64,000 bases of DNA from Curvularia clavata (lineage: Eukaryota): positions 2,046,001-2,110,000 of the forward strand of contig CP089276.1 in NCBI GenBank assembly GCA_023920165.1. Reading direction: 5' to 3'. Positions 20,681 through 63,190 of this stretch are shown in pieces. Every line of letters begins with the position of its first letter. Position 1 is the stretch's first letter. Both the position numbers and the translations under genes were made by a program. Under the pieces are notes generated by a model. That model saw only the letters and a list, made by a program, of their open reading frames with translations. It had not been told where the DNA came from and ran no database searches.

Positions 20681-23505
20681 ATGGATTCGTACACGTACGT
20701 CTATACTCACTTTGCTACGCGACAAACAACGCTGACAGTTTGGCAGTACTACTCACGAGGAGGTCAGGCCGCCCGCCGACTCATACAGACGCCGCTCACC
20801 AGGTAAGTGACATGCTCCAGTTTCGGGTTGGCACAATCTCATGGTCGTTTGCTCGGCGCATTGACGTGCAAATGCCTGTTGCCTCACTTTCCTGTCCTCC
20901 AGAACTCCTCCTCCTACGTTGCCTTAGCTAACATGTATTCCGCAGGCTCTGGAGACCGCAGAACTGGCAGAAGGCGATCGCGCTCACCCCAAAACATCGA
21001 CCGCTATCAACCCGACCGCGCCCGTGATTACGATGGACCTCGTCGTGATGGCAACCGTCGCCGCTCCTCTCCTCCGCCAGTGCAGGCTGGCATTGACCGA
21101 TATGTGCCGGGGCAAGACAACTTCGCACCGACATTTACAACGAACCCTGTTCCAAACCCAATGCACCTCGAATACCAGGTTGGCTTCAATTACTTCGCAG
21201 AGTGGTGGCGTGTTGAGCAACTTATGAAGGAAGAGAAGGAACGCGCCAAGAACGGCGGTCGTAAACCTGGTCTTAAAGGCGAACGCGAAGCCCGTGAGGA
21301 GCGTGGCAAGGAGCGCGAGCAGATTCAGGCAGCGTACGACGAATACAAGGAAAAGCTGCAGGTACAGATGGCCAAGACATTTGTAGAAAAACATAAGAAC
21401 GACGAGTGGTTCAAGGAGCGATACGACCCTGACTACGACTTGGCCTTCAAGGAGAAGCTCCGCCAGTACCGCCATGGTATTTACGAGGAGTGGGAGCGTC
21501 AGATTGACGAAGGTTACTTTGACGAATTCACACTCGAGGGCATTTACAAGAATGACTCGAATGGAGCTGGTGGCATCGTCGAGAAGGAGGAGGGAGAGAC
21601 AACTGCAGCCAACGAAGTTTTGGGGGTTGGTGATCTTCTGCCCTGCAAAGGCGGCGAAATCCGCGACGAGACTGCTTTCCAGCCAACCCTGCTCATCAAG
21701 ACAATTGCGCCAACGGTCAACCGCGAGAAAGTCGAGGAGTTTTGCAAAGAGCATTTGGGAGAGGGCCCTGGTGGTTTCAAGTGGCTGAGCATGAGCGATC
21801 CGAACCCACTCAAAAAGTGCCATCGTATTGGCTGGGTCATTCTCAACCCTGACGAGGAGCAGCCAATGGTCATTGATGATCGCGGTGATGGACGCGACAT
21901 GGATGACGAAGAAGGCACCATGGAAGACAAGCCTGAGGTTACCCAAGGGCAGCAGAGTACCGCTCACAAGGCTCTCGAGGCCCTCAATGGAAAGACAGTA
22001 AATGATGAAGTACGGGGCAACTTTACATGTCACGTTGGTATCCACGAGCCGCCTGCTGCCCCTCGCAAGAAGGCACTCTGGGATCTCTTCTCTGCGCCTG
22101 AGCGGATCGAGCGTGATCTCGAACTTGCAGAGCGACTGGTCAGGAAGCTCGATTCTGAGCTCAAGGCAGGCCATGAAGAGCAGTTCTTGAATGTTGATGG
22201 TGTCAGCAAAATCGAGCAGCGGGTCGAGGACCTGCGTGTCAAAGGCTGGCTGCAGCCCCCCGCAAATGCGCCAGCTCCTATCAAGAAGGAGCGAGACCCA
22301 GAAGAACTGGAAGAAGGCGAAGATGAAACAATGGAGGACGACGAGGGTACATTCGACGATGAAGTCGATGACGAGGAGTTGCTGGTCAAGAAGAAGAAGT
22401 TGGACCTTCTCATCGAGTACCTGCGACGAGTGTACAACTTCTGCTTCTTCTGCGTTTTCGAGAGTGACTCAGTTCATGAGCTGATTCGCAAATGCGCAGG
22501 AGGACATCTCCGCCGGCCCCGCGCCAGCTTGACTACAGCTGCAAAGGCAACGGCAAGGGCGACCGCTTCTGGAGAGCCTTTCCCTTACAGGAAACAAGAG
22601 TCCTCGGGTGATGCTGAGAACGGAGAGAACGGCAGTCCAGTACAAGAGCGCAAGCCTATGCGTTTGAGTACGAAGAACCAGCAACAACTCCAACGAGCTT
22701 TCAATTGGGTCAAGACATATGAAGAAAAACTCCTTCAACTGCTCGAGCCCGAGAACGTTGACATTCGCAAGCTCGGCGGCAAGCCCCTGGATGAAGCACT
22801 TGAGGACGAGCTTTCTCGATACGTCAAGCAAGAAGACGAGTCCAAGTGGCGTTGCAAAGTTCCAGAGTGCACAAAGTTATTCAAGGGCGAGCACTTTTGG
22901 CGAAAGCATATTGAGAAGCGTCACCAAGAGTGGCTTGAACAACTACAGAAAGATGTGAGTATTCGCGAGGATTGTCCAAGGGTGATTATGCTAACATAGC
23001 ACAGCTGCGCCTTGTGAACGCCTACGTTCTTGATCCTGCACACATTGCCCCGTCTCGCAGTGATGCCAATAGCAATGGTCACTTCCCTATGGGCAACCAT
23101 GTTCAGGCTACTGGAACCCCGCGTGGATTCAACCTGGCCAACATGAGCATGGCAATGGCAGGCAACGGAATGCAGAGCGGAATGCACATGGGCGGCATGT
23201 TCAATCCTGCCATGGGTGGCACCTGGGACCCTGCAGCTCACGATGACCGTGCTGGCCCTATGCGACGAGGTGGCCAGCGCTTCAATAGCCGCACAGGGCC
23301 TTATGACCGGCAGTCCCGGGATGCCCGTGGTCGACCTGCCGTCAATGGCGGCCGCCTAACTCCCCCACGCGGTACCCGCCCAGGCACTCAGCGATACGGC
23401 GAAGGCGGCCCAGGACCGGTACAGTCTGTACAGGGTCGGTCGATCAAGAGTTACGAGGACCTAGATGCTGTCGGTGGAGGGGGCAGCGGAGAGCTCAATT
23501 ACTAA
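20681..23505 (+). CDS. ARS2: ARS2/SERRATE (nuclear cap-binding complex adaptor) homolog with C2H2 zinc finger; 4 coding exons
   Basis: Introns 20695-20746, 20803-20945 and 22955-23004 keep frame. Motifs FVEKHKNDEWFKERYDP, LDLLIEYLRRVYNFCFFC, KWRCKVPECTKLFKGEHFWRKHIEKRH, and C-terminal SYEDLDA...ELNY. Confidence 0.88.
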
Positions 23506-28419: not shown

Positions 28420-29869
28420 ATGCCCGCCAAATCGCGATTCACGAGGCTAGATGCCTTTACCAAGACCGTCGAAGATGCGCGCGTCCGCACAACGTCTGGA
28501 GGAATTGTCACAATAGTGAGCCTGTTGGTCATCTTTTGGTTAACATGGGGTGAGTGGGCCGACTACAGGAGAGTCACAATCAGGCCAGAATTGGTGGTAG
28601 ACAAGGGAAGAGGTGAGCGCATGGAGATTGCGCTGAACATTTCGTTCCCGCGTGTACCATGCGAACTGCTCACGCTTGATGTTATGGATGTCTCTGGAGA
28701 ACTTCAGATGGGTGTTACACACGGTATCAACAAGGTGCATTTGAGCCCGGAGAAGGAGGGTAGCAAAGTCATTGCGATTAAGCCCATGGATTTGTAAGTG
28801 TACCTGGACCTCGACCCTTGTAGGCAAAGTAGATGTAGAGGACAGAAGCCAATACTAACTGCGTTTCTAGGCACGCTAACGAAGCATCTCACATGTCCCC
28901 CGACTACTGCGGCGAATGTTACGGCGCACCTGCCCCCTCCAACGCAAAGAAACCCGGCTGCTGTAACACCTGCGAGGAAGTGCGCGACGCCTACGCTTCT
29001 ATATCTTGGTCATTTGGTCGCGGAGAAGGCGTGGAACAATGCGAGCGGGAACATTACGCGGAGCGCCTCGACGCAGAGCGCCAGGAAGGATGCCGTCTTG
29101 AAGGCAGCATTCGTGTCAACAAAGTTGTCGGAAACTTCCACATTGCGCCCGGAAAGTCTTTCTCTAACGGCAATCTACACGTGCATGATCTAGAAAACTA
29201 TTTCAAAGATGAATATGCGCATACGTTTACGCACAGGATTCACCAGCTTCGCTTTGGCCCTCAGCTGAGCGATGTTGTTGTGAAGGGCATCCAAGACAAG
29301 CACCGCAGCTCTGGTCCTGGCAGCTGGTCGAATCACCACATCAATCCCCTTGACGACACCGAGCAACATACCGACGAAAAGGCCTTCAACTTCATGTACT
29401 TTATCAAGGTTGTCTCGACAGCTTATCTACCCCTTGGCTGGGAAGACGCTGCTCCCCGCTCCTCCAAGCACGAAGAGCTCCTTGGCTCTACCATTGACGC
29501 CTCGTACAAGGGAAGCATTGAGACACACCAGTACTCTGTAACAAGCCACAAGCGGAACCTGAAGGGCGGAAACGACGAACAAGATGGCCACAAGGAAAGG
29601 GTCCACGCCCGTGGCGGTATTCCAGGTGTCTTCTTCTCTTATGTAAGTTGCACCCCGTCCTCCAGCAGACTGATGAAATGTAATGACTAACATATGCACA
29701 GGACATCTCTCCAATGAAGGTTATCAACCGCGAAGTCCGCGAAAAGACCTTCTCTGGCTTCCTTGTCGGCCTGTGCGCTGTTATTGGCGGTACGCTTACT
29801 GTCGCTGCAGCTGTGGATCGCGCCCTATACGAGGGTGTCAACAAGATCAAGAAGATACATTCACAGTAG
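28420..29869 (+). CDS. ERV46: ER-derived vesicle protein Erv46 (ERGIC3 family); 3 exons
   Basis: LDAFTKTVEDARVRTTSGG, PCELLTLDVMD, YCGECYGA...CCNTCEEVRDAY, EGCRLEG...NKVVGNFHIAPG, GGIPGVFFSY|DISPMKV and a C-terminal TM helix. Introns 28794-28870 and 29643-29701. Confidence 0.95.
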
Positions 29870-30758
29870 CCATATCTCTCATTTAAACCGCACAAGAAGT
29901 ATAGGGCAAAGGCCCGTCCTTTACTGCATCCATGCAAAGGTTGTTTTGACTGGGGGTGTTTTTGGCGTTATCTTTGATTTGTTAGCTTTAAGAGAGCTAG
30001 AGCTGTGGACTACACATAAAAAAGGCCCCGTAGGTGTTGAAAGGGGGGCTCAGGGTGTGGGTGGGTGGGTAGAAGTATGCCGTAGGGTAGAATTTTTGCT
30101 TCCTGGTATGGGAAGAAGTGGGATTTGTATTATTTAAGTTTACCAATTTCAAGAGAAAAGAACAAGAAGAAGTACATTTGTAGAATTGCACTGTTTCCTG
30201 TGTGGTTGCTGTTGGGAAGGTGTTTGTTCGTATGATGACCTGTTCCAGTGTCCACATTAGAGAACAGAGAGTTCAGTTATGTAATGTAGGGGTTTGCAGG
30301 GGGCAGGGGATAATTGGCTTTTGGATTGACTCAATCAAATGCCGAATACATCATAATCACGAAGAAAGTGGTTGGTTTAGTTGACCAGAAAATATCTAGG
30401 CTACAGCTATTATGTAGTTGCCTGGCTGCCTGAACAACAAGGCTGTCGTGGGAAGCGACGTTATGGTTTAGCTCTTGGCTTTATACAAACCAAGTAAAGA
30501 CAGTCTATTCTGCGCCACATATCTGTAGAGCAGACCGAACTAGATTCCAGATAGTGTACAAGCGTGGTAGCACATCGTGGTTTGATGTCGGGGAGTCATG
30601 TGTTTCAACCAATAGCAAGCGGCGTCGCAGGTTAACATGTGGCTTGGCGCCGCACGGTCTGTCAGCCTTTATATATGGCTCCACCCCAGTTATCCCACTC
30701 CCACGTCCACCTAATTCTCAATACACTCATCACTATCGCTGGAATCACTCCGAGGACG

Positions 30759-31715
30759 ATGAACGACCAACCCCGAGGACGTGGACGAGGCCGCGGTCGC
30801 GGCCGTGGCAACTGGAGCGTCACTTTTACCCCCCAGAATAATGACGGCGATCAGATGATGGTCGATGGCGATTCCTCGCGGGGGCGAGGCAGGGGACGAG
30901 GACGAGGACGGGGTTTTCGAGGCGGTCCAAATCACTTCCAACACAACAACAATCATTCACGAGAGCCGCCCATCGACATTGAAAAAGTCAAGTCAAATCC
31001 AACCTACCCGCTTATGGAAGGCTTTCTCGGGCGCCGCTACGATGCAGCAAACAAGCTTCTCAACCTCTCCACCATTGCTAGCGATCAGGAAATCCTTAAA
31101 TCTGGCATGTTTTCCTCGGAAGGGGCCCAAAAGAAGTTTTTTCCTGCTCTCATGATCGTCTGCGATGCTATCCTTGAGACACAGGAAGCCAAAGAGCAAG
31201 CTGTTCACAGCGTCACACTGTCTGGAAACAATCTCCAGAACACTCATGCAGTTTACCAACTCTGCAATCACTTTCGCCACATTCAGAACCTGGACTTGAG
31301 CAACAACGCTTTCGCAACGCTCGACGCACTTAAGCCATGGAAGGGTCGCTTCCGAAACGTTGAACATCTCATAATCGATTCGTTTCCCTCGCCAAACTGG
31401 GAAGAAGAGATCATCTCGTGGTTTCCCAAACTCAAAATCCTGAACGGCAACCAAGTACGCCCTAATGCGGCGCCGGGAGCAAACGCACAACAACAAATAC
31501 CCCAATCCAATACTCCAACACCCGCACCCGCACCCGCAATCACAGATCCAGAGCAGCAGCGAAAAGAAGAAATGATTCTCTATGTACAGCGCGAAACTAA
31601 TCTCACGCGCGACTACGCCATTCAATGTCTGGAAGCGGGGCAGTGGAACCTCGAACAAGCGGGTATTTTGTTTGCTCAAAGCCGGGACTCTCTACCACCA
31701 GAAGCTTACAACTAG
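30759..31715 (+). CDS. Short Mex67/NXF-like protein: RG-rich N-terminus, LRR, TAP-C/UBA; NTF2-like domain absent; single exon
   Basis: FLGRRYDAANKLLNLSTI, KFFPALM, VHSVTLSGNNL, IQNLDLSNN, FPKLKILNGNQVR match the Mex67 LRR. QRETNLTRDYAIQCLEAGQWNLEQA...LPPEAY matches TAP-C. A TATA-like TTTATATAT sits about 85-90 bp upstream of ATG 30759. Confidence 0.8.
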   Translation: MNDQPRGRGRGRGRGRGNWSVTFTPQNNDGDQMMVDGDSSRGRGRGRGRGRGFRGGPNHFQHNNNHSREPPIDIEKVKSNPTYPLMEGFLGRRYDAANKLLNLSTIASDQEILKSGMFSSEGAQKKFFPALMIVCDAILETQEAKEQAVHSVTLSGNNLQNTHAVYQLCNHFRHIQNLDLSNNAFATLDALKPWKGRFRNVEHLIIDSFPSPNWEEEIISWFPKLKILNGNQVRPNAAPGANAQQQIPQSNTPTPAPAPAITDPEQQRKEEMILYVQRETNLTRDYAIQCLEAGQWNLEQAGILFAQSRDSLPPEAYN

Positions 31716-32720
31716 GTTTTGCCTGCTTGCGAGTGTAGAGAGATCGAAATGTGCACTGTCCATTGAAGCAAGGAAAGGTTTGATCAAATAGGGGCGTCGC
31801 GAAGAGTGTAAGACGACTGCCTCTTTACCACGACAATGAAACCCCAACGGGAAAAGCCAGCTGTCCCTACCTTCATCAAACATCTATCACAACAATCTGT
31901 GCTACAAATGGAGCTGGATCTCGTAGCACACTGCAAATGGGACCTTCGACACGACAACCATTGGGCTCACCACTATTCATACTATCGCAAATAAAAATCA
32001 CCGCCACTCAGCAAACCCTGCGAAATCCCTACCGTAGGGCCCCGGACACATACACACGGCAAAGCGCAGTGTATTCTTCATTGTTTTCCTGTTTTCTTTA
32101 CTCGTTGCCACAGCCTTTTATACATCCAGGGTCTTTTGCACAACACAGGAAATTGATCATCCCACGGTTGTATCACGTGGCACAGAACTAGGAGGGCGAG
32201 AGCAAGTTAGAGCATAGCACGGTGTTTGTATATCTTTTATTGTTGTTTCCGCTGTCAATTGTGAGAGAGAAAAAAGGGGGGACAGGCACGCTCTGCTATG
32301 CGGAGATATCGTTATGGAGCGATGGGAGGTGGCTACGGGCTAGATTGGACGCATGGCCAGGAGGTGGTTGCAAAGGAAATAAAAATCATTTGTATAGATG
32401 GGAGAAAGCGATTCAGACCCATGAAATGGAATATTTCGTCATGATATCTTCTTTCTGGTATTCATGTGCATCATGACGTGACAGATTTTATTTTCACTCA
32501 AAATGCGCTTTGAAATGGATTTTTAACAACAATCCATCACAACTCGCACATCACGTTTCACTATGTTCAGAAGAAAGACTTGTATAGTAGAAGAAATCTG
32601 CTCCAGGCATCCAAGCCGAGCATCATGAGAATCAATCATTCGTCGAATATACTTTGTGAGGGACATCGCTACTTTCCAAAACAATATGAACAATTCGAAA
32701 ACAACAGAATAAATAATCGC

Positions 32721-35265
32721 TTAATGACTCTTCCTCTGCACATTAGCCAAAGCACTATTAAGCGCAGCCGTGACATCAACGTGGAACAATGGCCTATTCA
32801 GGCCCTGGACAACCGCTATTTTGCCCCTATGTCGCGCGTCTTGCCCAGCTTCGTATGCCTTGCTATGCTCGAGCTGTTTGTTCAGGCTGCCCGTTTCCGA
32901 GCTGGCGCCTGAGACATCTGCAGCCCATGCAGCCTCGATATCGTTGTTTCGAACCTGCGATGTTGTGCGGCGAGCGAGAAGGTTCTCTTGCGCCTCTGCT
33001 TGTGCGGCAGCCGAGTCTGAACCACCAATCTCGGCGACACTGAAGACTGGTTTCCATCGGTGTGTGATGCCGTTCTCAGGTGTCTCTGGTGTGTAGTAGC
33101 CGAAGCCAGCGGCGGCAAGTGAGCGCTTGGTCCAGCGGTTGTTGATGTTGCAGAAGTGCCAATCAACGGTGTCGGGAGCGGCGTATTTGTCAAGCTGATT
33201 CCTGACATCAATCAAGTTTTGGATCGCAGTAAGGTCGACATTGTTGACTGAAGAAAAGTCGAGGATGATGGCCTTGAGTGTCGGTCGGTCGTCCGGTGCT
33301 GCCGACTCCTTTCCGCGCCGTGGGCCAGGGTCATTCCATGGGCGATCGCCTATCCTGTCGTAGGTTGCCTGGTTTGTACGACGTGTCTTGGCAAATATGG
33401 TGTTGGTGAGTTCGTCGAGATAGTGGTTTGCGTTGGGATAGTTGAAGCCTTCACTGAAACGGTAGATGAAGATACCTGGGTATGGGTCCTCTAACTCGAT
33501 CGTTGGGTTGGATCCATCCTTGTGATCGATGGGCAGGAAGACTTCGCGAATGGAGTGCTCTCCCTCGGCCGGCTTCTGCCTTGAAGTGGGCGGCTTCTTG
33601 TCGTCATCCGTGGGATCAAGAAGATGGTCACCAACGACGGAGTGAATCTTAGCTCGTCCCATGAAGCGTCCCCTAGCTTTGAACAAGCGGAAGGCGAACA
33701 TGCCAGCAGATACAGACACAGTGACGAAGATACCATTCTCAATGCTGGAGAAGACAGTGACCAGAACACCGATGAAGAAGATGATAACTTCAAGTGGCGA
33801 GATTCTCCAGAACTGATATACAGTGTTTGGTGGTGTAATCAGGTCAAGCACAGCGTGAATAATGACCGCTGACAGTGCCGCATTCGGAATGTACCAGAAC
33901 ATGGCTGGGAGGGCGTAGATGGCGAGCAACACTACTACGGCGGTAATGACACCTGCGAAAGGAGTGCGCACTCCAGCCTTGGACTTGATGGCAGTGCGAG
34001 AGAAGGAACCAGTTGCAGGATAGGCCCCGAGGAAAGGACCCAGGCAGTTTGATACACCGATAGCTACCAGCTCCTGTGAGGGGTTGATTACGTAGTTGTT
34101 GACCCTGCCGAAGGATTTGGCGATAGAGATGTGTTCGATAAGAAGCACAATTACAGTGGAAGGCAGCTCCGTGGCAAAGGACTTGATGATAGGGATCGTG
34201 ACCTTCGGTACACGAGCGTGCTGGAAACCTCGGGGAACGGTTCCTAGAGTAGAGATGATAGGCTTGGTGCCATTGGCCTTGTGTGATCGATTCACCAGAT
34301 AGCTGAACAGAATGTACAGTAGGATGACGAATACCGTGCGCAGGGTGTTCAGGAAGAAGAACAGCTTAGCTTTGCCTGGGAAACGTTTCGCAAGTCGGCC
34401 ACAGCCGTATCGGATCGCGTACAAGAGGAAGAGACATGTAAGGCCGAAGGCAGCGTTGAGATCGGTGCGTCCAAGGTGCTTCAGAGAGTTAATGACGACT
34501 TTGTACGTAGGGTCCCTCGTTGAGAAACCCTTGATTCCCATCATAGTCGGGAACTGTCCAGCAGCAATGCTAAGGGCAGAGCCGGTCATGAAGGCGGAGA
34601 TTGCAGGTAGAGAAATAAGGTCGACGATCCAGCCTAACCTGATGAGACCGAGGAAGAGGACAATCGAGCCAGCAATGATGGCCAATGAAGATGCAATCAT
34701 GTCTCTTGAGATGTCTTGGCCAGCCAGTTTCTTCTCTGCTGATAGCACAACGCTGCCAGTCACTGTAGAAAGGACGGCGACTGGACCGATGGTGATATCT
34801 TTCGAGGTAGCGAAGAACCAGTAGATGAGTACACCCATGAACGACGAATATAATCCGAACTCGACGGGAAGCTCTGCAAGCTTTGCGTAGGCCATGCCCT
34901 GGGGAACGACAACTGCACCGACCGTGATACCTAAACGAGGTCAGTGTTTTGATGTCCAGATTGCAATGTGTTGACATACCAGCAACAAGATCTCCGATTA
35001 ACCATTGTAAATTGTAGCGACCTATCCAGTGAACAAAAGGGAACAAGCTGTATAGGTATTCGGCAAATTCTCGACTGCTAGGAATGACTTCCTGAAGCCA
35101 CTCCCGCGCGGTAGGTTCTTCCTCAACATAGACGTCGGCAGAGTCGACGGTAAACACGCTCTCTCCTCGTGTAACACGGTCCGAGCCGGTTTCGTTCCGG
35201 TAATGCAGATCGATGCCCAGGACCTTTGCCAGGCCATGGCCAACTTTGTTGGCCGTAGAAGCCAT
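32721..35265 (-). CDS. SulP/SLC26 sulfate permease with STAS domain; 2 exons
   Basis: Intron 34931-34979 joins GDLVA|GITVGAVVVPQGMAYAKLA. Motifs ATSKDITIGPVAV, EHISIAKSFGR, ATGSFSRTAI and STAS IILDFSSVNNVD. Sul1/Sul2/CYS-14/SB-like. Confidence 0.95.
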
Positions 35266-37322: not shown

Positions 37323-39851
37323 CTAACCCCTCTTCCTCGCCTTCTTCTCTCTCTCATAAGCATTCTTCTCCCTGCCCTCCTCGCCCTGGATCTCCGCAAC
37401 AAGCCTCCTGTACTTGGTCTCGTATGCACGATCCTTCTCCTTCTTCTCCTTGAGACTCTCTCTCGCAATGAAGTTAGCATCCTTACGCAGCTCACGCAGC
37501 GCTCCTTTCCTCTCGCGCTTGTACTCCTTCTGTAGCTTCTTGGCCTCTGAGCGCTCCTTGTCGGGATCGTAGTGCCGGTTGGGATCGAATGATTCTTCGA
37601 ACTTAGGAATGTTGGATTTGATAGGCAGAGGACGGTGGTTGTGGAGAAGAAGAGGCCGTCGCTTAGAGCGCGCAAGGGAGATGCGGGCTTGTAGATTTTG
37701 CAGAGTGGAGGTCTGCTTGGATGTCTTGAGGGGCGTCAAGAGAGGTGTGAAAACTTCGATGAAAGATGGTGAAGTGCTCCACAGTTCAGCAGCTGTAATG
37801 ACATTCTTGCTGTGAGCGACGAGGAGCGTAGCTGTGGCATGCTCTGAAGCAAGACAGAGCCCTGTATAGCGGATGAACTCGGGAATGTATCGCTTCGATA
37901 GTCTTTGGTAGTGGAGGCACTGTGCGCCGACAAAAGCACCAGTAGCAACGTCTTTGGTCGAGGCTGGCGAAGTGAGGCCCATCCAGCGCGCCATCAGAGT
38001 GACAGCTGGTGTCACGACTTGATGGAAATGATCAGAGGTAGGGAAGATGGATCCAATCGCCGACAAAAGCGCGAGATCACCTGGCGTTGGGTCGTTGGAG
38101 ACCTGCAGTTGCTTCAAGTGTTCTCGGAACCTGGTCGCAATCTGAACAGGGTACGAACGTGACATAGAATGAACGTGACGGATGATAGCCTCGATCACGG
38201 CCAAGGGCGCGACGGGGGTCTGATTCGAAAGGTATGAGACATGATCAATGAGCGCGCAAGCAAAATCAGCAAGCTTGTTCTTGTTGTCTGCATGGAGGCC
38301 AGCGTGGTAAAGTGCACGTATCCTCTGAATAACAGTCGATGTATCGTTGATAGCAACGTCCTTGAATACCTTCAACAGCTCTTCGTGTGAGCGAGGGCAT
38401 GCATACGTATAGGCTAGTTTCGACGAAGGCTCAGCACTCAGGGTGAGAACACCATTGACAGCCTTTGGTTGCTCCTTGCGCTCTGGCATGACGTCCTTAA
38501 GAAAATCAGCATCTTCGTCGTCCATGGCCATGGTGTCGTCGATAGCGGAGCCCGCCTCAGATTCATCGTCAGAAATGTCAGCTTCCGAGTCGGTAGCGAT
38601 GAGATCGTCATCCATGATGAAGTCGTCCTCGTCGTCAACACCGTCCGGTCGGAGCTGACCGGGAGCCTTCAATCCAAACTCAGCAGCGTCATCTGGGAGA
38701 CTATCTTCGTCTTCGTCTTCGTCTTCGTCTTCGTCCTCCTCGAGCTCGTAAGCACCCTTCTTGCGAGGCTCCTCGTCGTCGCTGACTGGCTCTCCACGCA
38801 TCCTCTTCATGCGCTTCTGCTCGAGCTCCTTCAAACGGTCAGCCTCCTCCTTGGCCTTTTCCTCTTCTGTTTTTGTTCGTTCTGTCGGCTTCGCTCGCTG
38901 GTCTTGCAGCAACTGGCGCACCCTGGTATCGTACTCTCTATCTTTGTCCTGTTGTGTGGCTCCAGCAAGGAGTGCTGCACGGTCGGCGTTCATGCCAAAG
39001 TCGTTAAGCTGCGAGGATTTGGGCGCTTCAGGCTCAGGCTTCTTGTTGATGTGTCCTCGCAGGGCCAGCAAAACGTCGTTAAGATCCTTGTCGAGCTCGT
39101 CTCTCAGTTCTTCGTCGTCCTCCTTTTGTGCCTGACGCTCGTACTTGTGCTGCTTTGACTTGGCTATGACCTCCTTCATGACCTCTTGTTTGCTCTTCTT
39201 CCTCTCCGGCTGCTCCTCTGCAGGAGCATCGTCGCCAGCCTCACCATCTACATCTTCTCTCCGCCTCTTCTTTTTCAGGAAACCGTCTTCATCATCGCTC
39301 GATCCAGCGATACTTGCCGCATCGTAGTCTTCCTCGCCAATTTCGTCGTCAAAACGCAGCGTCTGTCCACCGTGCGTAAGCTCGACCTCATCAGCGTCGT
39401 CCTCGAGATCAAACACGTTGCCACCCCTCTTGCGCTGCTGTTCCCGCTCAAAACGCGCCATCATCTTGTCCTCGAGACTCATTGTCGGATCGTCTTCTCC
39501 AATTCGCCTGTCTAGAATACCTCCGACCTTATTTTTGCGGTGCATTTCTGGCAAGAGCGATTTCCTACGGGCCTCTTCGCCCTGGCTCTTGGTGACACCA
39601 GGCCTGCCGAGAATCTTCTTGGGCGCATTCTCAGCCTGTGCGGAGACATACTCATGCTTATGCGGGCGCGCAAGATGCTTGAACTCGAAGGGATTGAAGG
39701 ATTCGCGGATTGAGGCGAGCGCAGAAGCTCTTCGTTCGCGGTGGTCGGCGTTCTTGGATTGCGACTTCTTCTGTTTCTTAGACTTTTGTGGACCGGTAAT
39801 GCCCTGCTCGCGAAGCGAGGTTTTCAGCCGCTTCAGCTGTGAAGGTGGCAT
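37323..39851 (-). CDS. NOP14: Nucleolar protein Nop14 (SSU processome); single exon
   Basis: MPPSQLKRLK start, FNPFE, KKSKQEVMKEVIAKSK, FPTSDHFHQVVTPA, and C-terminal YKRERKGALRELRKDANF. Confidence 0.95.
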   Translation of the reverse strand: MPPSQLKRLKTSLREQGITGPQKSKKQKKSQSKNADHRERRASALASIRESFNPFEFKHLARPHKHEYVSAQAENAPKKILGRPGVTKSQGEEARRKSLLPEMHRKNKVGGILDRRIGEDDPTMSLEDKMMARFEREQQRKRGGNVFDLEDDADEVELTHGGQTLRFDDEIGEEDYDAASIAGSSDDEDGFLKKKRRREDVDGEAGDDAPAEEQPERKKSKQEVMKEVIAKSKQHKYERQAQKEDDEELRDELDKDLNDVLLALRGHINKKPEPEAPKSSQLNDFGMNADRAALLAGATQQDKDREYDTRVRQLLQDQRAKPTERTKTEEEKAKEEADRLKELEQKRMKRMRGEPVSDDEEPRKKGAYELEEDEDEDEDEDEDSLPDDAAEFGLKAPGQLRPDGVDDEDDFIMDDDLIATDSEADISDDESEAGSAIDDTMAMDDEDADFLKDVMPERKEQPKAVNGVLTLSAEPSSKLAYTYACPRSHEELLKVFKDVAINDTSTVIQRIRALYHAGLHADNKNKLADFACALIDHVSYLSNQTPVAPLAVIEAIIRHVHSMSRSYPVQIATRFREHLKQLQVSNDPTPGDLALLSAIGSIFPTSDHFHQVVTPAVTLMARWMGLTSPASTKDVATGAFVGAQCLHYQRLSKRYIPEFIRYTGLCLASEHATATLLVAHSKNVITAAELWSTSPSFIEVFTPLLTPLKTSKQTSTLQNLQARISLARSKRRPLLLHNHRPLPIKSNIPKFEESFDPNRHYDPDKERSEAKKLQKEYKRERKGALRELRKDANFIARESLKEKKEKDRAYETKYRRLVAEIQGEEGREKNAYEREKKARKRG

Positions 39852-48761: not shown

Positions 48762-51034
48762 ATGCTTTGCGACCTATGCATTGGTATGCTCAGCCGGAGC
48801 GAAGGTCTTATCAAAATTCATACCCTCGAATACACATTCAGACATCATGAGTCAACAAGAACACTTCAGCATTCAAGGGATATGGATTGCCCAGTCTGTG
48901 TAAGGCTGGCGAGAACGCTGAATCTGGAGGCTGATGTTTCACAAGGCCAGCCTTTATGTATTCGAGCAACATTGAATTGGGAAAGATCATATAGCAACGA
49001 AACAGGAAAACGGACTTTTAGGCTTGACTTCGAGCTTGGGGACAATCGCGAATGCACCTTTTTCCTAGCAGAAACAGGTAGATGAACCACACAGAAGACG
49101 ATGCCCTCATTTTTCTAATGTCTGTAGATGAAGAAGAGTCACTTGACTTCCATAGCAGCACCTTTGGAGATTTTACAGAAACGGCACAAACCTGGATGAG
49201 AAAGTGTAACTGTGCCAAGTTCTGGGAAGAGCCTTGCACGAAATGGTACCCTCGTCGTCTATTGGATTTGGCAGAGTTGCAAACCAGTTTCCAAGATCCA
49301 CAAAGGGCGAGAGTACTTTTGGTAGAGACTGAAGAATTTCTGAGCCAGCCAGAAGCATGTAGCGTGTTTTATCGTGCTCGAGTCAAGCATGGGAACGACC
49401 GCTATGTCACATTGAGCCATTGTTGGGGTAAACCGAAACCGGGCTCACCACCACCACTGAGAATGACTTTCGAGAATGAAGAGCGCTTTAAAACTGATGG
49501 TATCATGTTGCAGGATCTGCCAAAGACATTTCAAGACGCCGTCATATTCGCTGCAGGGCTGGAAAAGGTCGGTTTCATATGGATCGACTCTCTTTGTATC
49601 CGGCAACCAACTAAAGACAATGGTGTGAACCAAGAGGAGCAGCTCAAAGATTGGTTCGAGCAAAGTCGCCATATGGAAGTCGTGTATCAAAAGGCGTTCC
49701 TTAATATCTCCGCTACCGCTGCAAATGATGGACAAGACGGCTTGTTCTTCAACCGTCGACCAAAGCGTCTTTGGGGAAATAAAGTTTATGTGCATTACCC
49801 TGAGAACCATTCAGTTGGGTCATACCACGACGCCTCAAGACCAGACACCTACACGAGATGTTCCCTGATCGATACTTCTACTTGGGACGATCTCGTTGAG
49901 TATGCCCCAGTTAATCGACGGGCTTGGGTCTTCCAGGAACGCTTACTGGCACCACGCGTACTCCACTTTGGCCACAACCAGCTCGCCTGGGAGTGTCATG
50001 AATTCAGTTGCAGTGAAAGTCACTCTCCGAATGAATTAGCGATCAAGCCATCCCGTACCGACGGCTTCGTTCAGGAAGGTCGCTTGAAGCACCTAACAGC
50101 TTCTACAGGACGCTCGTTCCGCGAAGCACGATTGAACGGGTTTCGAGATCCTGATCAGCACATCAAAGACATACACATCTACGAACTATGGAAAAAAACA
50201 GTCGAAAACTATTCTCAAAAACAGCTTACAGAGAACAAAGACAAACTCATCGCACTCAGCGGCATAGCAAAACTGTTCCACAATGAGCTTTTCAGTACAG
50301 ACTTCGAGCAGGAATATGTCGCTGGGCTATGGAGCCGTCACATCGAAAGTCAGCTATTATGGCATGTAAACGAGGTATACCATGGCAACGGAATCTATGA
50401 CAACCCTGGAACGCGGTACCCAGAAAGCGGGCCCTCGTGGACATGGGCTGCTATCGATACTCCACATGGAGTCACATACAGCGATGTCACAGATTACATG
50501 TCCTCGCAACACAGCCCTGCAAACTTTACTGACGTACTTCTCTTCCGAGTCAAAGACTACAGCATCACTCTCGCTGACCCAAAGAACCCCTTTGGCATAC
50601 TCGCGTCCGGCCGCATCTTTCTTGCACCGCGCTATCTCCACCCAATCGAACTCCAGAGGCAAGCTGCTGGCCAAGGCGTACCCTATACCTGGCGCCTGAA
50701 AACAGGGTCGCATAGTAAGCGGCAACACAAATACGCCAACATCTACCTTGATGCACCGAATTCCGACACCGATATCTTTGGTGAGAGCGCTCAATTGTAC
50801 TGCATGCCTGGGGCATATGGTGAGCGGACAGTAAGAAGTGCAGATCGTTATTTGTACTGCTTGTTGCTCAAGTATGAGGGCGACGTTCTATCCTCACCAA
50901 GTGAGCGGGAACAAGGATGTGGGCGGTATAGGAATTTTCGTCGGGTTGGTATTACCAAAGTGGGTGGTATGTTTAGGGCCGCGCAAGATGCGTTGAAGCA
51001 AGGGGAGACGCAAGAAGTTATTTGTGTGTGCTGA
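48762..51034 (+). CDS. HET (heterokaryon incompatibility) domain protein; 2 exons
   Basis: MLCDLC...CPVC N-terminus, intron 49078-49127, HET motifs YVTLSHCWG, LPKTFQDAV, FIWIDSLCI, MEVVYQKAFLNISA, RRAWVFQERLLAPRVLHF, DKLIALSGIA, YVAGLW, PSWTWA. Confidence 0.92.
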
Positions 51035-56076: not shown

Positions 56077-56672
56077 TTTGGGGTATCTTGGAAGTGTTGG
56101 AAGTGAGGGTGAGTGGGAGGAGAAGGCAGGAAAATATACCGACAGCTGGATTCCCCCCGACAACAGAGACACCTTTTTCAAGATTACTCTAAGAGCGAAA
56201 TCGCATTCAAGTCGACCAATAGACGCTAGAGGGGCCCATTTATCCCCGTTCCAGACCAATCACAGTCAGCGTCCAGAAACTCTACTGACTGCCGCTCCTG
56301 GAGTACAGACACTGTTCGCGACCAGGGCCCGTAGCTTAGGGCCGCACCCGGTTGAAAGAAGATTCGATTGCGAAGACACTACTAGTTCTTTTCCTAGAAT
56401 TTATCATGTTGTCGTGGATCTCTAGGCATGCAAAGTAAGCAAGTTGGGAGTACTGTGGTAACTTTGCTGAGGCTTGGGCCCGTGCTCAGTCGCCTTGTCC
56501 CTGCAGCTGGGCCCGCCTCCCATTGGCCGGCGCGCCACCCAGCTCTCACCGCCTACGCTAGCCCGCCATCCGCGGAACCAGCCTTTTCGCGACGCTCTGA
56601 ACTTTTGCGAGAGCTTCAAGCTGCTCGACGCGCATCACCGCCGCTGCACCAACCCCACCGCCGACAGCCACC

Positions 56673-59600
56673 ATGGACGACCTTTACGACGAGTTCGGAA
56701 ACTTCATTGGCGAGGCCGAGTCCGACGACGATGTCCAAAGCACCGGCGAGGCTGCCGGCGCCGATGCCTACGTTCTCGATGATGAAGATGAGGCCGAGGC
56801 CAATGACCAGCAGCTGATGGAGGTCGACGAGGGCCCTTCCAACGCCGTCGTTCTACACGAGGACAAGCAGTACTACCCTTCCGCATCAGACGTATATGGT
56901 CGCGATGTGGAGGTGCTAGTGCATGAGGAAGATACACAGTCGCTGGCGCAACCCATCATTGCTCCAGTCGTGCAAAAGAAGTTCTCGATTGAAGAGGCCG
57001 ACCTGCCCCCCGTCTTTCACTCAAGAGAGCTCTTGACCGATTTGATGAACTTCCCCGACCAGATACGAAACATTGCTCTCGCCGGACACTTGCACCATGG
57101 AAAGACTGCGTTTATGGACATGCTGGTCATGGAGACGCACGACATCCAAGATCGCCTGGACTATAAGAGGGGAAAGAAGCGCGAGGAGCAGCTGCGCTAC
57201 ACCGACGTACACGTGCTCGAGCGCGAGCGAGGTCTGTCCATCAAGGCCGCGCCAATGAGCCTGGTGCTCCAGAACACAAAATCCAAATCCCACCTGTTCA
57301 ACATACTCGACACACCCGGGCACGTAAATTTCGCCGACGAAGTCGCCGCCTCACTACGTTTGGTTGACGGAGTGGTTCTAGTGGTGGACGTTGTTGAAGG
57401 TGTGCAGGTCAACACGGAGCAGATCATCAAGCATGCAGTGCTGGAGGACCTGCCCTTGACGCTGGTGGTCAATAAGATGGACCGGCTGATTCTGGAACTG
57501 AAGCTGCCGCCTAGCGACGCATACTTCAAAATCAAACACGTAATCGAAGAGGTCAACACTGTCATTGAGAACACCATTCCCGGTCGGGGTGAGAGCAGGC
57601 GTGTAAGCCCTGAAAAAGGCAACGTCGCTTTCGCCTGCTCCAGCATGCGATGGTGCTTCACAATCCAGTCGTTTGCCAAGATGTACTCCGACTTCTATCC
57701 CGGGCCTTCGAAGCTGCCAGGATTCGGCGTTCCCATGAAGGGATTGGATATTGACAAGTTTGCTATGCGACTTTGGGGCGATATTTTCTACAACCCAGGG
57801 AGCCGAAAGTTCAGTCGCAAGCGACAAGAGGAGGGCTCGCAACGGTCTTTCGTACACTGGATCCTGGAGCCCGTTTACAAGATCTACTCGCACACGCTTA
57901 GTCAAAGCCCGGATGACCTCAAAGAAACGCTAGAATCTCTAGGCATACGGTTGAAGCCATCCGAGTACAAAACAGATGCGAAGGAGTTGATGCGACTTGT
58001 ATGCCAGCAGTACTTCGGTCCGTCCGCGGGTTTTGTAGACATGGTCATACAGCACGTTCCATCTCCTGAGGAAGGCGCGCAACGACTTCTGCAAAGACAC
58101 TACACTGGACCCTTAGACACGAAGACAGCAGAGGCAATGCAAAAGTGCGACCAGAACGGTCCCCTTGTCATACACGTCACAAAACTCTTTAATGCGACAG
58201 ATGCAAAATCATTCACAGCACTGGGTCGAGTGCTGAGTGGTACCGCAACTTCGCCGCAGTCGGTACGCGTACTCGGTGAAGGCTACACAATTGAAGACGA
58301 GGAAGACATGGTTGTTGCAATTGTAACAGATACATGGATAGCCGAGTCGAGGTACAACATCCCAGTCAGTGGCGTGCCAGCAGGCAACTGGGTTCTGCTT
58401 GGTGGTGTCGACAATTCAATAGTCAAGACAGCAACTATTGTAGCCACCAAGCTACCGGATGAAGAGGATGCATATATTTTCAAACCTATTCGGCACTTTT
58501 TCGAGTCCGTCTTCAAGGTTGCAGTCGAGCCAATCAACCCATCTGAGCTACCAAAGATGCTTGATGGTCTCCGCAAGATCAACAAATCGTACCCGCTCAT
58601 CACGACAAAGGTCGAAGAGTCGGGGGAGCATGTAGTTCTCGGCACCGGCGAGCTTTACATGGATTGTGTATTGCACGATCTTCGACGACTGTATGCTGAC
58701 ATGGAGATCAAGGTCTCCGACCCAGTCACTCGATTCTGTGAGACAGTTGTAGAGATGTCTGCAATGAAATGCTACGCGTCCACACCAAACAAGAAGAACA
58801 AGCTCACAATGATTGCTGAGCCGCTAGATCCTGGAATCGCTGAAGATATCGAGGCGGGCAAAGTCAACATCAAGGACCCTGTCCGTGTAGTTGGCAAGTT
58901 TTTCGAGGAGAACTACGGCTACGATTTGCTCGCATCACGCAACATCTGGGCTTTCGGACCCGACGACATGGGTCCTAACATCCTACAAAACGATACCCTT
59001 CCTGCGGAGGTTGACAGCAAGATACTCCGGAGCGTGCGAGACACGCTGCGACAGGGTTTCAGCTGGGCTACGCGTGAAGGCCCGCTCTGTGAAGAGCCTA
59101 TTCGCAACACAAAGTTCCGTCTGACAGATGTTGAGCTTGCATCAGAAGCCATCTTCCGCGGCGGTGGTCAGATCATTCCCACAAGTCGACGAGCCTGCTA
59201 CTCGTCGTTCCTAATGGCAAGTCCCAGACTAATGGAGCCGGTGTACTCATGCAGTATGATTGGCCCGGCCGATACCAAGAGCAGTCTCTACACCGTTCTT
59301 GCACGCAGGAGAGGCCACGTTCTACAAGACGGGCCTATTGCGGGTACTCCACTTTACAACGTGCGCGGTCTTATCCCGGTCATCGATTCTTTTGGCTTCG
59401 AGACCGATCTGAGAGTACGTATTTACAATGACTTTTACTTGAGACATTCACTAACCCTACGACAGATCCACACACAGGGCCAAGTCTCCCTCTCTCTTGT
59501 CTTTGACCGCTGGTCTATTGTTCCTGGCGACCCACTTGACAAGGACATTACGACTCGCCCACTTGAGCCCGCCACTGCCCAACAATTGGCACGCGACTTT

Positions 59601-59711
59601 GTGCTCAAGACGAGGAGGCGAAAGGGTCTCGCTGAAGACGTCACCATAAGTAAGTTCTTGGAACCTGAGCTTTTCCGTAGTTTGAAGGAGAGCGGTGTAT
59701 TGGATGGATAA
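56673..59711 (+). CDS. SNU114: U5 snRNP GTPase Snu114 (EFTUD2); 2 exons with a 51-nt intron at 59415-59465
   Basis: MDDLYDEFGNFIG, GHLHHGKT, DTPGHVNF, NKMD and EF-2-like domains. Removing the intron restores FGFETDLR|IHTQGQ. Confidence 0.96.
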   Translation: MDDLYDEFGNFIGEAESDDDVQSTGEAAGADAYVLDDEDEAEANDQQLMEVDEGPSNAVVLHEDKQYYPSASDVYGRDVEVLVHEEDTQSLAQPIIAPVVQKKFSIEEADLPPVFHSRELLTDLMNFPDQIRNIALAGHLHHGKTAFMDMLVMETHDIQDRLDYKRGKKREEQLRYTDVHVLERERGLSIKAAPMSLVLQNTKSKSHLFNILDTPGHVNFADEVAASLRLVDGVVLVVDVVEGVQVNTEQIIKHAVLEDLPLTLVVNKMDRLILELKLPPSDAYFKIKHVIEEVNTVIENTIPGRGESRRVSPEKGNVAFACSSMRWCFTIQSFAKMYSDFYPGPSKLPGFGVPMKGLDIDKFAMRLWGDIFYNPGSRKFSRKRQEEGSQRSFVHWILEPVYKIYSHTLSQSPDDLKETLESLGIRLKPSEYKTDAKELMRLVCQQYFGPSAGFVDMVIQHVPSPEEGAQRLLQRHYTGPLDTKTAEAMQKCDQNGPLVIHVTKLFNATDAKSFTALGRVLSGTATSPQSVRVLGEGYTIEDEEDMVVAIVTDTWIAESRYNIPVSGVPAGNWVLLGGVDNSIVKTATIVATKLPDEEDAYIFKPIRHFFESVFKVAVEPINPSELPKMLDGLRKINKSYPLITTKVEESGEHVVLGTGELYMDCVLHDLRRLYADMEIKVSDPVTRFCETVVEMSAMKCYASTPNKKNKLTMIAEPLDPGIAEDIEAGKVNIKDPVRVVGKFFEENYGYDLLASRNIWAFGPDDMGPNILQNDTLPAEVDSKILRSVRDTLRQGFSWATREGPLCEEPIRNTKFRLTDVELASEAIFRGGGQIIPTSRRACYSSFLMASPRLMEPVYSCSMIGPADTKSSLYTVLARRRGHVLQDGPIAGTPLYNVRGLIPVIDSFGFETDLRVRIYNDFYLRHSLTLRQIHTQGQVSLSLVFDRWSIVPGDPLDKDITTRPLEPATAQQLARDFVLKTRRRKGLAEDVTISKFLEPELFRSLKESGVLDG

Positions 59712-61715: not shown

Positions 61716-61975
61716 TGTCGTACATGCTACCCCCAATTAAGACATTCAGAGCGAGCAAAGGGGAGAAAAAACCGGCAACTGTGCTAACCTATTCAAAATC
61801 GATCATGTGCTTACGTAGGAGCATATAGACAGTTTGGTTGACGCGAGACGCGGATGGATCGCGTTCGCGCTAATCTTATCTTATCGTCAAGCTCCGCCAA
61901 AAAAAGTTCCAGTCGCATCGCATCTCCAACTCTCCATTCCAAGCACCTTTCTCTCACAGCACAGCCACTCCAACC

Positions 61976-63190
61976 ATGGCACTCGACGATTCTCTTCAGC
62001 AACCACTCAACTTTACCGGTCATCGGCACCTGATTTCACGCCTCTTGCTCGCAACTCTCACCGGCCGACCCGTTCGCATATCGCAAATTCGCTCTTCGTC
62101 GACGAACCCTGGCCTAACTCGCCATGAAACCAATTTCATCCGACTCCTCGACGCGGTGACGAATGGATCGCAGATACAATTTAGCATGACGGGTACAACA
62201 CTCGTCTACCGCCCTGGACTTATCACCGGTTCAGCCGAAGGCCTAGGCGCAAGCGGAGGCGTAATTCGACACGAGATACCGGCAGAATGCAGAAAGCGAG
62301 GCGTGAGTTGGTGGTTAATACCTCTCTGCATACTTTCGCCTTTCAGTAAGGGCAATATGAACATCATTTTCCACGGTGAAGGCTGCGTTACCTCTTCGAC
62401 AATTGCTGGCGACGTTTCTGCCGACACGGTTCGTACAGCTATTCTTCCGCTGTATAAAAACTTTGCCATTGAGCGAAATATCGAACTGCGCATCCTTAAG
62501 CGCTCGTGCGCCCCCGCAGGAGGCAAAGGCGCAGGCGGCGAGGTCCAGCTTGTTTTCAACCACCAGGTCCGTTTACCCAAGACGCTGCACCTGCTGAATC
62601 CAGGACGAGTGAAGAAGATACGCGGTGTAGCGTACTGTGTTGAGGTTCCCAAGAGCAACAACGAACGCATGACTTTCACAGCAAGAGGCATCCTAAACAA
62701 GTTCGTACCGGATACGTACATCTTCTCCGACGCAAGCCCTGCACCCCTGATACCCACAAATGCAAAGGGTCATGCGTCAGGAAAGGTCAAAGGAGCCGTC
62801 GGATTCGGAATCAGTCTCGTAGCGGAGAGCAGCACAGGTTGCATATATTCGGCCGACGTGTGCTCCCCGCCCGACGGCGGTGTCCCTGCAGACGAAATTG
62901 GCAAGCAATGCGCATACCAGCTTCTCGAGAAGATTTCACAAGGAGGCTGTGTAGAGAATGTGGCAGCGCCCACGGTGCTTATGCTCATGGCTATGGGCAG
63001 CGAGGACGTCGGCAGAGTAGCGCTCGGCAAAGAGGTGCTTGCGAGCGAGGAGATCATCCAGCTAGCAAGAGACGCAAAGGAGTTTGGAGGCAGCGCATGG
63101 GGCTTCAGAGAAGCAGGCGGCGAAAAGGAAGAAATCGTCGTCAGTGTAGTAGGCAAAGGCGTGGGCAATGTCGGAAGAAAAGTGGCTTAG
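61976..63190 (+). CDS. RCL1: RNA 3'-terminal phosphate cyclase-like protein Rcl1 (18S rRNA biogenesis); single exon
   Basis: RLLLATLTGRPVRISQIRS, PGLTRHETNFIRLL, YRPGLI, GGEV, GFGISLVAES, LLMAMGSEDVGR-like motif, C-terminal GKGVGNVGRKVA. Confidence 0.92.
   Translation: MALDDSLQQPLNFTGHRHLISRLLLATLTGRPVRISQIRSSSTNPGLTRHETNFIRLLDAVTNGSQIQFSMTGTTLVYRPGLITGSAEGLGASGGVIRHEIPAECRKRGVSWWLIPLCILSPFSKGNMNIIFHGEGCVTSSTIAGDVSADTVRTAILPLYKNFAIERNIELRILKRSCAPAGGKGAGGEVQLVFNHQVRLPKTLHLLNPGRVKKIRGVAYCVEVPKSNNERMTFTARGILNKFVPDTYIFSDASPAPLIPTNAKGHASGKVKGAVGFGISLVAESSTGCIYSADVCSPPDGGVPADEIGKQCAYQLLEKISQGGCVENVAAPTVLMLMAMGSEDVGRVALGKEVLASEEIIQLARDAKEFGGSAWGFREAGGEKEEIVVSVVGKGVGNVGRKVA

Follow-up and report, generated by a model that had tools for sequence, protein, structure and literature searches.

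The 64,000-nucleotide stretch of Curvularia clavata DNA analysed here (contig CP089276.1, positions 2,046,001 to 2,110,000; the window) carries a short gene of the Mex67/NXF1 family. With a probability of roughly 0.93, it is the only MEX67 gene of the genome, sits at the ancestral locus and has lost two domains in frame, one after the other. The only mRNA export receptor of these fungi thus seems to have been reduced across a whole lineage, and the reduction was probably repeated independently in other fungi.

Domain structure of the window protein

The gene is a single open frame of 318 aa plus stop, read directly in the DNA. Its features, all on the + strand, are as follows.

30759..31715, +: MEX67 ortholog, 318 aa, single exon, RG-LRR-UBA (open frame, Pfam, PDB match, transcript contigs, tree)
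30774..30809, +: first RG block, residues 6-17, disordered (sequence, AlphaFold2)
30843..30860, +: D-G-D-x-x-M motif, residues 29-34, apparently inherited from the N-terminus of full-length Mex67 (motif count)
30879..30926, +: second RG/RGG block, residues 41-56, at the position that the RRM occupies in Massarineae and other relatives (alignment)
30966..31463, +: Mex67-type LRR domain, about residues 70-235 (PDB match, Foldseek, dN/dS)
31464..31553, +: 30-aa P/A/Q linker, site of the deleted NTF2-like domain (AlphaFold2, comparison with Zopfia)
31554..31712, +: TAP-C/UBA domain (Pfam, alignment, Foldseek)

Six RG pairs make up each RG block, at residues 6-17 in the first and 41-52 in the second. 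The LRR terminates in the motif quoted in the first-pass annotation. In Pfam, LRR_NXF1-5 (PF24048) matches residues 92-196 (E 2.1e-5; 24.5 bits, under the curated cut-off of 30.5) and TAP_C (PF03943) matches residues 271-317 (E 2.2e-13; 50 bits, above the cut-off of 21.3). Compared by sequence with the PDB, the protein matches Mex67 of Chaetomium and yeast best (LRR, 4wp6, E 9.5e-25; UBA, 4wp2, E 8.1e-6). In an AlphaFold2 model built on a 19-sequence alignment, the LRR and UBA are confident; Foldseek superposes them on 4wp6 (rmsd 2.2 Å) and on the Chaetomium UBA 4wp2 (rmsd 0.8 Å), and all of its top ranks are Mex67. ESM Atlas matches are generic LRR/NXF clusters only (best score 0.80). W296 of the UBA is invariant in 19/19 aligned sequences; by analogy with human TAP, this residue may have a role in the FG pocket.

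The NTF2-like (NTF2L) domain is absent. Neither the NTF2 nor the NXF_NTF2 family appears among the Pfam matches of the protein at E up to 1, and the LRR and UBA are only 31 aa apart, a distance that spans 176-322 aa in 136 relatives with all four domains (median 243). The linker is similar in composition to the NTF2L-to-UBA linker of full-length Zopfia Mex67. An RRM profile built from relatives gives no match on the protein. In the model, pLDDT stays below 50 over most of residues 1-68 and over residues 238-261; consequently, it predicts neither a folded RRM nor a folded middle domain. The architecture proposed in the first-pass annotation, an intact single-exon frame with two RG blocks, a Mex67-type LRR, a short P/A/Q linker and a TAP-C/UBA domain but no NTF2-like domain and no clear RRM, is borne out on every point, including by the LRR, NTF2 and TAP_C profiles with which it was to be checked.

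Transcription and selection

30694..32439, + (strand inferred from the ORF; the contigs do not show it): extent of the unspliced transcript contigs

One unbroken contig covers the ORF in each of three runs from three studies (30694-32379, 30713-32439 and 30720-32396). The RNA nature of these runs is taken not from the run records but from the neighbouring ERV46 and sulfate permease genes, whose introns are spliced out in the same runs; cover between the genes is near zero. A fourth run, from a mixed sample, covers the ORF in pieces only. An in-frame ATG at 30675 would give a protein of 346 aa. The main contigs start downstream of this position, and their beginnings favour 30759 as the true start, which is a weak hint.

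Against near orthologs, dN/dS of the window gene is about 0.02-0.04, indicating strong purifying selection; the ratio is approximate because dS is saturated in many pairs. In comparisons with five near orthologs, dN is 0.04-0.06 for the LRR (dS is 1.8-3.1 in four of the five pairs and saturated in one) and 0.05-0.07 for the UBA; the linker evolves far faster (dN 0.3-0.4).

Metagenome DNA provides a further view of the shortened form. Of 75 metagenome loci, 61 are complete for LRR and UBA, and the 14 incomplete ones were set aside. In 20 of the 61 the NTF2-like domain is absent and the LRR-UBA gap is 81-174 nt; in the other 41 it is present and the gap is 663-840 nt.

A short ORF of this kind might be produced by an assembly deletion, a mis-predicted intron or a decaying pseudogene, and the first-pass annotation had itself allowed for deletion and decay. 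Some short forms of other lineages are known from gene models only and may be such artefacts; the window gene is not among them. Because independent transcript contigs cross the ORF without a joint, there is no intron and no assembly deletion here. The same short gap recurs in the DNA of the 20 metagenome loci, and the gene is transcribed unspliced at a dN/dS far from that of a decaying sequence. The probability of an artefact at the window ORF is negligible.

Copy number in the genome

The genome (32.4 Mb in 8 contigs) was searched with the window protein, PF03943, PF24048, PF22602, a distant full-length Mex67, the full-length Zopfia Mex67 and an isolated NTF2L domain; the searches were run without a control genome and score only a few first-look candidates. 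With these protein and profile searches, neither a further Mex67 nor a free-standing NTF2-like module came to light in the genome. Residues 140-314 and 543-620 of Zopfia Mex67 match the window locus, while residues 315-542 match nowhere. With PF22602, Zopfia Mex67 reaches 142.6 bits, whereas no match in the genome exceeds 18.2 bits. In all 41 complete NTF2L-bearing metagenome loci, a single open frame takes in LRR, NTF2L and UBA, which makes it improbable that a full-length copy is concealed by introns; together with the contrast in PF22602 score, this layout makes a missed copy unlikely.

Several other matches were rejected. A second TAP_C match that passes the cut-off (C5:1269812-1269931 of the assembly, L003) belongs to an unrelated protein with two UBA-like domains and no LRR or NTF2 match. 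The further LRR matches are an unrelated LRR protein and, by inspection, a U2A'-like gene. PF22602 matches are noise plus one Ntf2 exon.

Published gene clusters agree with a single copy. In supplementary file 15 of PMC3516569, the TAP_C+LRR cluster 9163 has one gene per genome in 9/9 Pleosporales and in two Hysteriales; the corresponding clusters 13165 and 8301 have one gene per genome in 7/7 Capnodiales and in 12 outgroup ascomycetes, respectively (PMC3516569). As this file contains only differential clusters, the table is support rather than proof.

Conservation of the locus

28420..29869, +: ERV46, upstream synteny marker, outside the mechanism (Pfam, locus comparison)
32721..35265, -: sulfate permease (SulP), downstream synteny marker, outside the mechanism (Pfam, locus comparison)

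The full-length MEX67 of other ascomycetes occupies the same ERV46-SulP interval, which was the synteny comparison that the first-pass annotation had proposed. ERV46 lies 1.6-2.1 kb upstream in 8 of the 26 NTF2L-bearing loci with at least 4 kb of upstream DNA (four of the eight are near-identical), and the sulfate permease lies downstream in 3 of the 23 with at least 5 kb of downstream DNA. Two NTF2L-bearing loci (L042 and L045) have the complete ERV46-MEX67-SulP order of the window. Most full-length loci do not retain these neighbours; since fungal genomes are shuffled, few retained neighbours are expected. Two shared neighbours are hard to get by chance.

ERV46 and MEX67 are in tandem in the window and its relatives and divergent in the NTF2L-bearing loci and in the black-yeast locus L085; this is explained by an inversion of ERV46 in the lineage of the window. 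In eight rows of a published table, cluster 9163 also falls within a conserved Pleosporales block (PMC3516569, supplement 8).

The window contains other RNA-processing genes, namely ARS2/SERRATE, Nop14, a Snu114-like gene and a member of the RNA 3'-phosphate cyclase family (20807-22999, 37323-39851, 56601-59711 and 61874-63190); their clustering is probably a coincidence. A HET-domain gene, of a variable kind common in these fungi, is located at 49082-51034.

Order of domain losses in the Pleosporales

The careful tree was built from the LRR and UBA of 39 chosen rows; a 169-row tree was run in quick mode only. The labels Leotio, Eurotio, Sordario, Lecanoro and yeast on the 39-row tree are our guesses, and the suborder placement of genera (Massarineae, Pleosporineae) is likewise our own assignment. 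The four-domain Mex67 proteins of Delitschia confertaspora (P0210) and Zopfia rhizophila (P0209) form one group with all nine short Pleosporales rows at 99/99, to which they are sister; identity to the window protein is 40% over 213 aligned LRR-region columns. Within this group, the short Pleosporales, Lophiotrema and Polyplosphaeria included, are united at 98/94 and the Pleosporineae at 100/100. NCBI taxonomy places Delitschia in the Pleosporales and Zopfia in the Dothideomycetes incertae sedis. The fine branching is untrustworthy, as Pleosporineae nest inside Massarineae in the tree.

Both Delitschia and Zopfia Mex67 retain the RRM and NTF2L; the window protein has neither. Massarineae-type proteins are RRM-LRR-UBA and Pleosporineae-type proteins are RG-LRR-UBA. 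The NTF2-like domain was lost inside the Pleosporales, since Delitschia keeps it and Lophiotrema, Polyplosphaeria, Massarineae and Pleosporineae are without it. The RRM was lost later, in the Pleosporineae, and RG repeats expanded in its place: the median number of RG pairs per 100 N-terminal residues is 12.2 in Pleosporineae-like proteins, 0.6 in RRM-bearing short forms and 1.6 in four-domain forms.

A trace of the ancestral N-terminus appears to have outlasted both domain losses. Among proteins with long N-termini, the D-G-D-x-x-M motif is found in 64/71 four-domain, 21/21 Massarineae-like and 18/34 Pleosporineae-like proteins, several of the last starting at a downstream Met; in shuffled sequences its frequency is below 1%. 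Among 317 fetched proteins with LRR and UBA, 112 are without NTF2L; this set is biased by the queries and gives no frequency.

Probable losses in other lineages

Black-yeast (Chaetothyriales) Mex67 is also without NTF2L and lies near ERV46, but retains the RRM (RRM-LRR-UBA). The short forms are:

P0329, Cladophialophora immunda
P0357, Fonsecaea erecta
P0086
L090
L046:9509-10813
L085:4006-5430

In L046 and L085 the short Mex67 is in a single open frame. The black-yeast forms branch apart from the Pleosporales on long internal branches, and the 39-row tree needs a minimum of six changes of state. A single origin of the Pleosporales and black-yeast short forms is rejected by the AU test at p 0.033, a weak result given that the group was named after the tree was seen and that the black-yeast branch is long. 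From their sequences, black yeasts probably lost the NTF2-like domain independently. Other short forms, known from gene models only, come from Piedraia, Phlyctema, Hypomontagnella and Trizodia and are scattered among full-length rows in the tree.

There are a number of further short forms. L082:394-1137 is a fungal Mex67 without NTF2L, in one open frame, whose sequence places it in neither of the two main groups. Some close relatives differ in having a short or a full-length form, as in the pairs P0227/P0240 and P0305/P0314 and also in the case of P0258, P0231, P0239 and P0273; they include the Phyllosticta citricarpa group against P. capitalensis and another pair with short branches. P0227 also has no UBA match. 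These cases may be real recent losses, duplicates or gene-model errors.

Ortholog or paralog

The first-pass annotation had taken the gene for an additional NXF paralog that could have a specialised role or compete with Mex67, which would require a normal full-length Mex67 that the genome searches overlooked. There are precedents for divided roles among paralogs in trypanosomes (PMC12774637). In addition, a few short forms adjoin close full-length ones in the 169-row tree (P0305, P0314) and could be recent duplicates, and the AU test rejects a common origin of the two main short groups only weakly. Nevertheless, the genome searches for a separate full-length MEX67 returned the window locus only, the gene has ancestral synteny, and it nests with the full-length Mex67 of Delitschia and Zopfia; the single cluster member in each of the nine Pleosporales genomes points the same way. 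A search of longer proteins gave one distant match at 36% identity, which is weak evidence, and no Pleosporales name occurs among the best 120 of 166 NTF2L matches, most of which are nameless and which were obtained with a query from another order. A specialised paralog is very improbable.

As no other copy is found, the locus is ancestral and the tree position is that of Mex67, the window gene is best explained as the sole MEX67 ortholog. It belongs to the Mex67/NXF1 family by descent, having the LRR, the TAP-C/UBA domain and orthology by tree, locus and single copy. It lacks the NTF2-like domain and RRM that characterise the canonical heterodimeric receptor, and the genome searches found no canonical Mex67/NXF1 beside it, such as would accompany a specialised paralog.

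The dimerisation partner and Sac3

With the NTF2-like domain absent, the canonical Mtr2/NXT1 heterodimer would be impossible for the window protein; in this canonical sense, the Mtr2-independence claimed in the first-pass annotation stands, as judged from the sequence. In A. nidulans the partner is the p15-like NxtA, and the published account identifies no Mtr2 homolog there (PMC3192866). PF10429 gave 0 candidates in the C. clavata genome in a search run without a positive control, and PF02136 matches only Ntf2 and a Bre5-like gene.

On the partner, the published clusters give conflicting indications. Cluster 13034, which is NTF2-marked (NTF2 in 14% of members), occurs in 6/7 Capnodiales and 0/9 Pleosporales (PMC3516569). 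Cluster 4535 (NTF2 in 3.4% of members) is represented once in each of the 18 Dothideomycetes, Pleosporales included (PMC3516569), and could be NxtA. When cluster 4535 was sought via its neighbouring Usp gene, one Usp locus fitted the published order by inspection, but this order breaks after a RINGv gene. In PMC3516569, clusters 13034, 4535 and 13165 do not occur in supplement 9, and neither 13034, 4535 nor PF02136 occurs in supplement 14. Co-loss of NxtA/Mtr2 with the NTF2-like domain is plausible.

A second FG-binding site might instead be restored in trans by a retained NxtA/Mtr2, by Ntf2, by a Bre5-type NTF2 protein or by self-association. Ntf2 and the Bre5-like gene are indeed present, and cluster 4535, present in all of the 18 Dothideomycetes, would be a candidate if it is NxtA. 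This is countered by several results: a stand-alone Mex67-type NTF2L is not found in the genome, the profile searches (that with PF10429 uncontrolled) add no further candidate, and cluster 13034 is missing from the nine Pleosporales. Furthermore, the Mtr2-binding pre-alpha1 loop and beta-sheet described in PMC4498709 fall in the deleted part. Restoration in trans is unlikely.

Sac3 of Chaetomium binds the NTF2L of Mex67 via ten N-terminal FG motifs, which are poorly conserved (PMC4509546). Sac3 of the C. clavata genome appears to start with an exon rich in RG that contains a single FG, and no FG array precedes it (L114:3830-4090, contig C2 of the assembly); four NPF motifs follow the M domain. 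From these sequences, absence of the Sac3 FG array and loss of NTF2L from Mex67 may possibly reflect co-evolution. We propose tentatively, at a little below even odds, that most Pleosporales, and convergently black yeasts, lost NTF2L, the NxtA/Mtr2 gene and the Sac3 FG array together. If so, these would be natural opisthokont lineages without the Mex67:Mtr2 / NXF1:NXT1 heterodimer, in which mRNA would leave the nucleus either with an RG-LRR-UBA protein acting as a monomer or along a route independent of Mex67.

Proposed function

The window protein is probably a partner-free accessory mRNA-export adaptor. By analogy, the RG-rich tail and LRR would grip RNA or mRNP adaptors and the UBA would supply one FG-nucleoporin contact; Gle1 would be available for release. 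Genes for Gle1 and Sac3 are present in the genome. An arginine-rich N-terminal RNA-binding domain is described in NXF1 (PMC8311971). The window protein is probably not the main bulk exporter. Taken together, the ortholog history and this accessory mechanism are favoured at somewhat better than even odds.

Data from other species predict a weak carrier, which an accessory role fits. In Chaetomium, RNA is bound with about 15-fold lower affinity once one of the two, RRM or NTF2L-Mtr2, is deleted (PMC4498709); as both domains are absent, the window protein may be a poor carrier by analogy. Budding yeast Mex67 needs Mtr2 for binding to repeat nucleoporins (PMC2175290). Two FG-binding sites are needed for CTE export by human TAP, and a 2xUBA derivative is about 50% active (PMC4330393, discussion).

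Mex67 is not essential in all ascomycetes. In A. nidulans, mexA, nxtA and double nulls are viable, and deletion of nxtA leaves growth at 37 °C at the wild-type level; MexA is called the principal component, and the data reported concern growth and localisation (PMC3192866). S. pombe dispenses with Mex67 and requires Rae1 instead (PMC4377836). Tolerance of Mex67 loss in filamentous ascomycetes would explain how NTF2L could be lost more than once while an LRR-UBA function stayed under selection.

These observations also fit a role outside transport, in which the sole ortholog is kept as a nuclear mRNP/TREX-coupling factor, its UBA binds THO/Hpr1 rather than FG repeats, and export proceeds wholly via another route such as Rae1/Gle2. 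The main RNA- and pore-binding modules are both gone, the UBA binds Hpr1 as well as FG nucleoporins (PMC12774637), Mex67 is dispensable in the two species just mentioned, and the start of Sac3 differs from the ten-FG array of Chaetomium. On the other hand, the UBA is as constrained as the LRR and closely superposes on the Chaetomium UBA. This constraint and predicted fold would fit retained FG binding, and Hpr1 binding equally well. A purely non-transport role is rather unlikely, though less so than restoration of an FG site in trans; an accessory export adaptor is the preferred reading.

Relation to known export receptors

The LRR and UBA folds and their order are the same in the window protein and in Mex67 of Chaetomium thermophilum and S. 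cerevisiae (Mex67:Mtr2; 4wp6, 4xm4, 4wwu, 4wp2). It differs from these in having no RRM, NTF2-like domain or canonical Mtr2 interface; it would have one FG site instead of two, and carries an RG-repeat tail where these have the RRM. Among systems studied genetically, the nearest is A. nidulans MexA (AN2737)/NxtA (AN3864), the single Mex67 of a filamentous ascomycete. MexA is described as a four-domain protein that brings NxtA to the nuclear envelope (PMC3192866); the window protein does not contain the recruiting domain.

Altered domain content within the family is also seen in trypanosome TbMex67, TbMex67b and TbMex67L (PMC12774637). These three are paralogs, all of which have LRR and NTF2L and bind Mtr2; TbMex67L is without the UBA (PMC12774637). 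No description of a fungal Mex67 without NTF2L was found in the open literature, the body of work to which the search was mostly confined. Such short proteins are already in databases under names such as 'TAP-C domain-containing protein'.

Implications

That neither mexA nor nxtA is essential in A. nidulans (PMC3192866) makes these losses less surprising. Strong selection maintains, across a broad group of fungi, a sole Mex67 that has no dimerisation domain and, in part of the lineage, no RRM. The proteins form a natural deletion series, from four domains to RRM-LRR-UBA to RG-LRR-UBA, and black yeasts probably repeated the loss independently. This series allows the contribution of NTF2L:Mtr2 and the sufficiency of one FG site to be tested. 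It also bears on which carriers move bulk mRNA, pre-ribosomes and tRNA when, as in filamentous fungi, Mex67 is not essential; a large fungal group may export RNA without the textbook two-protein carrier.
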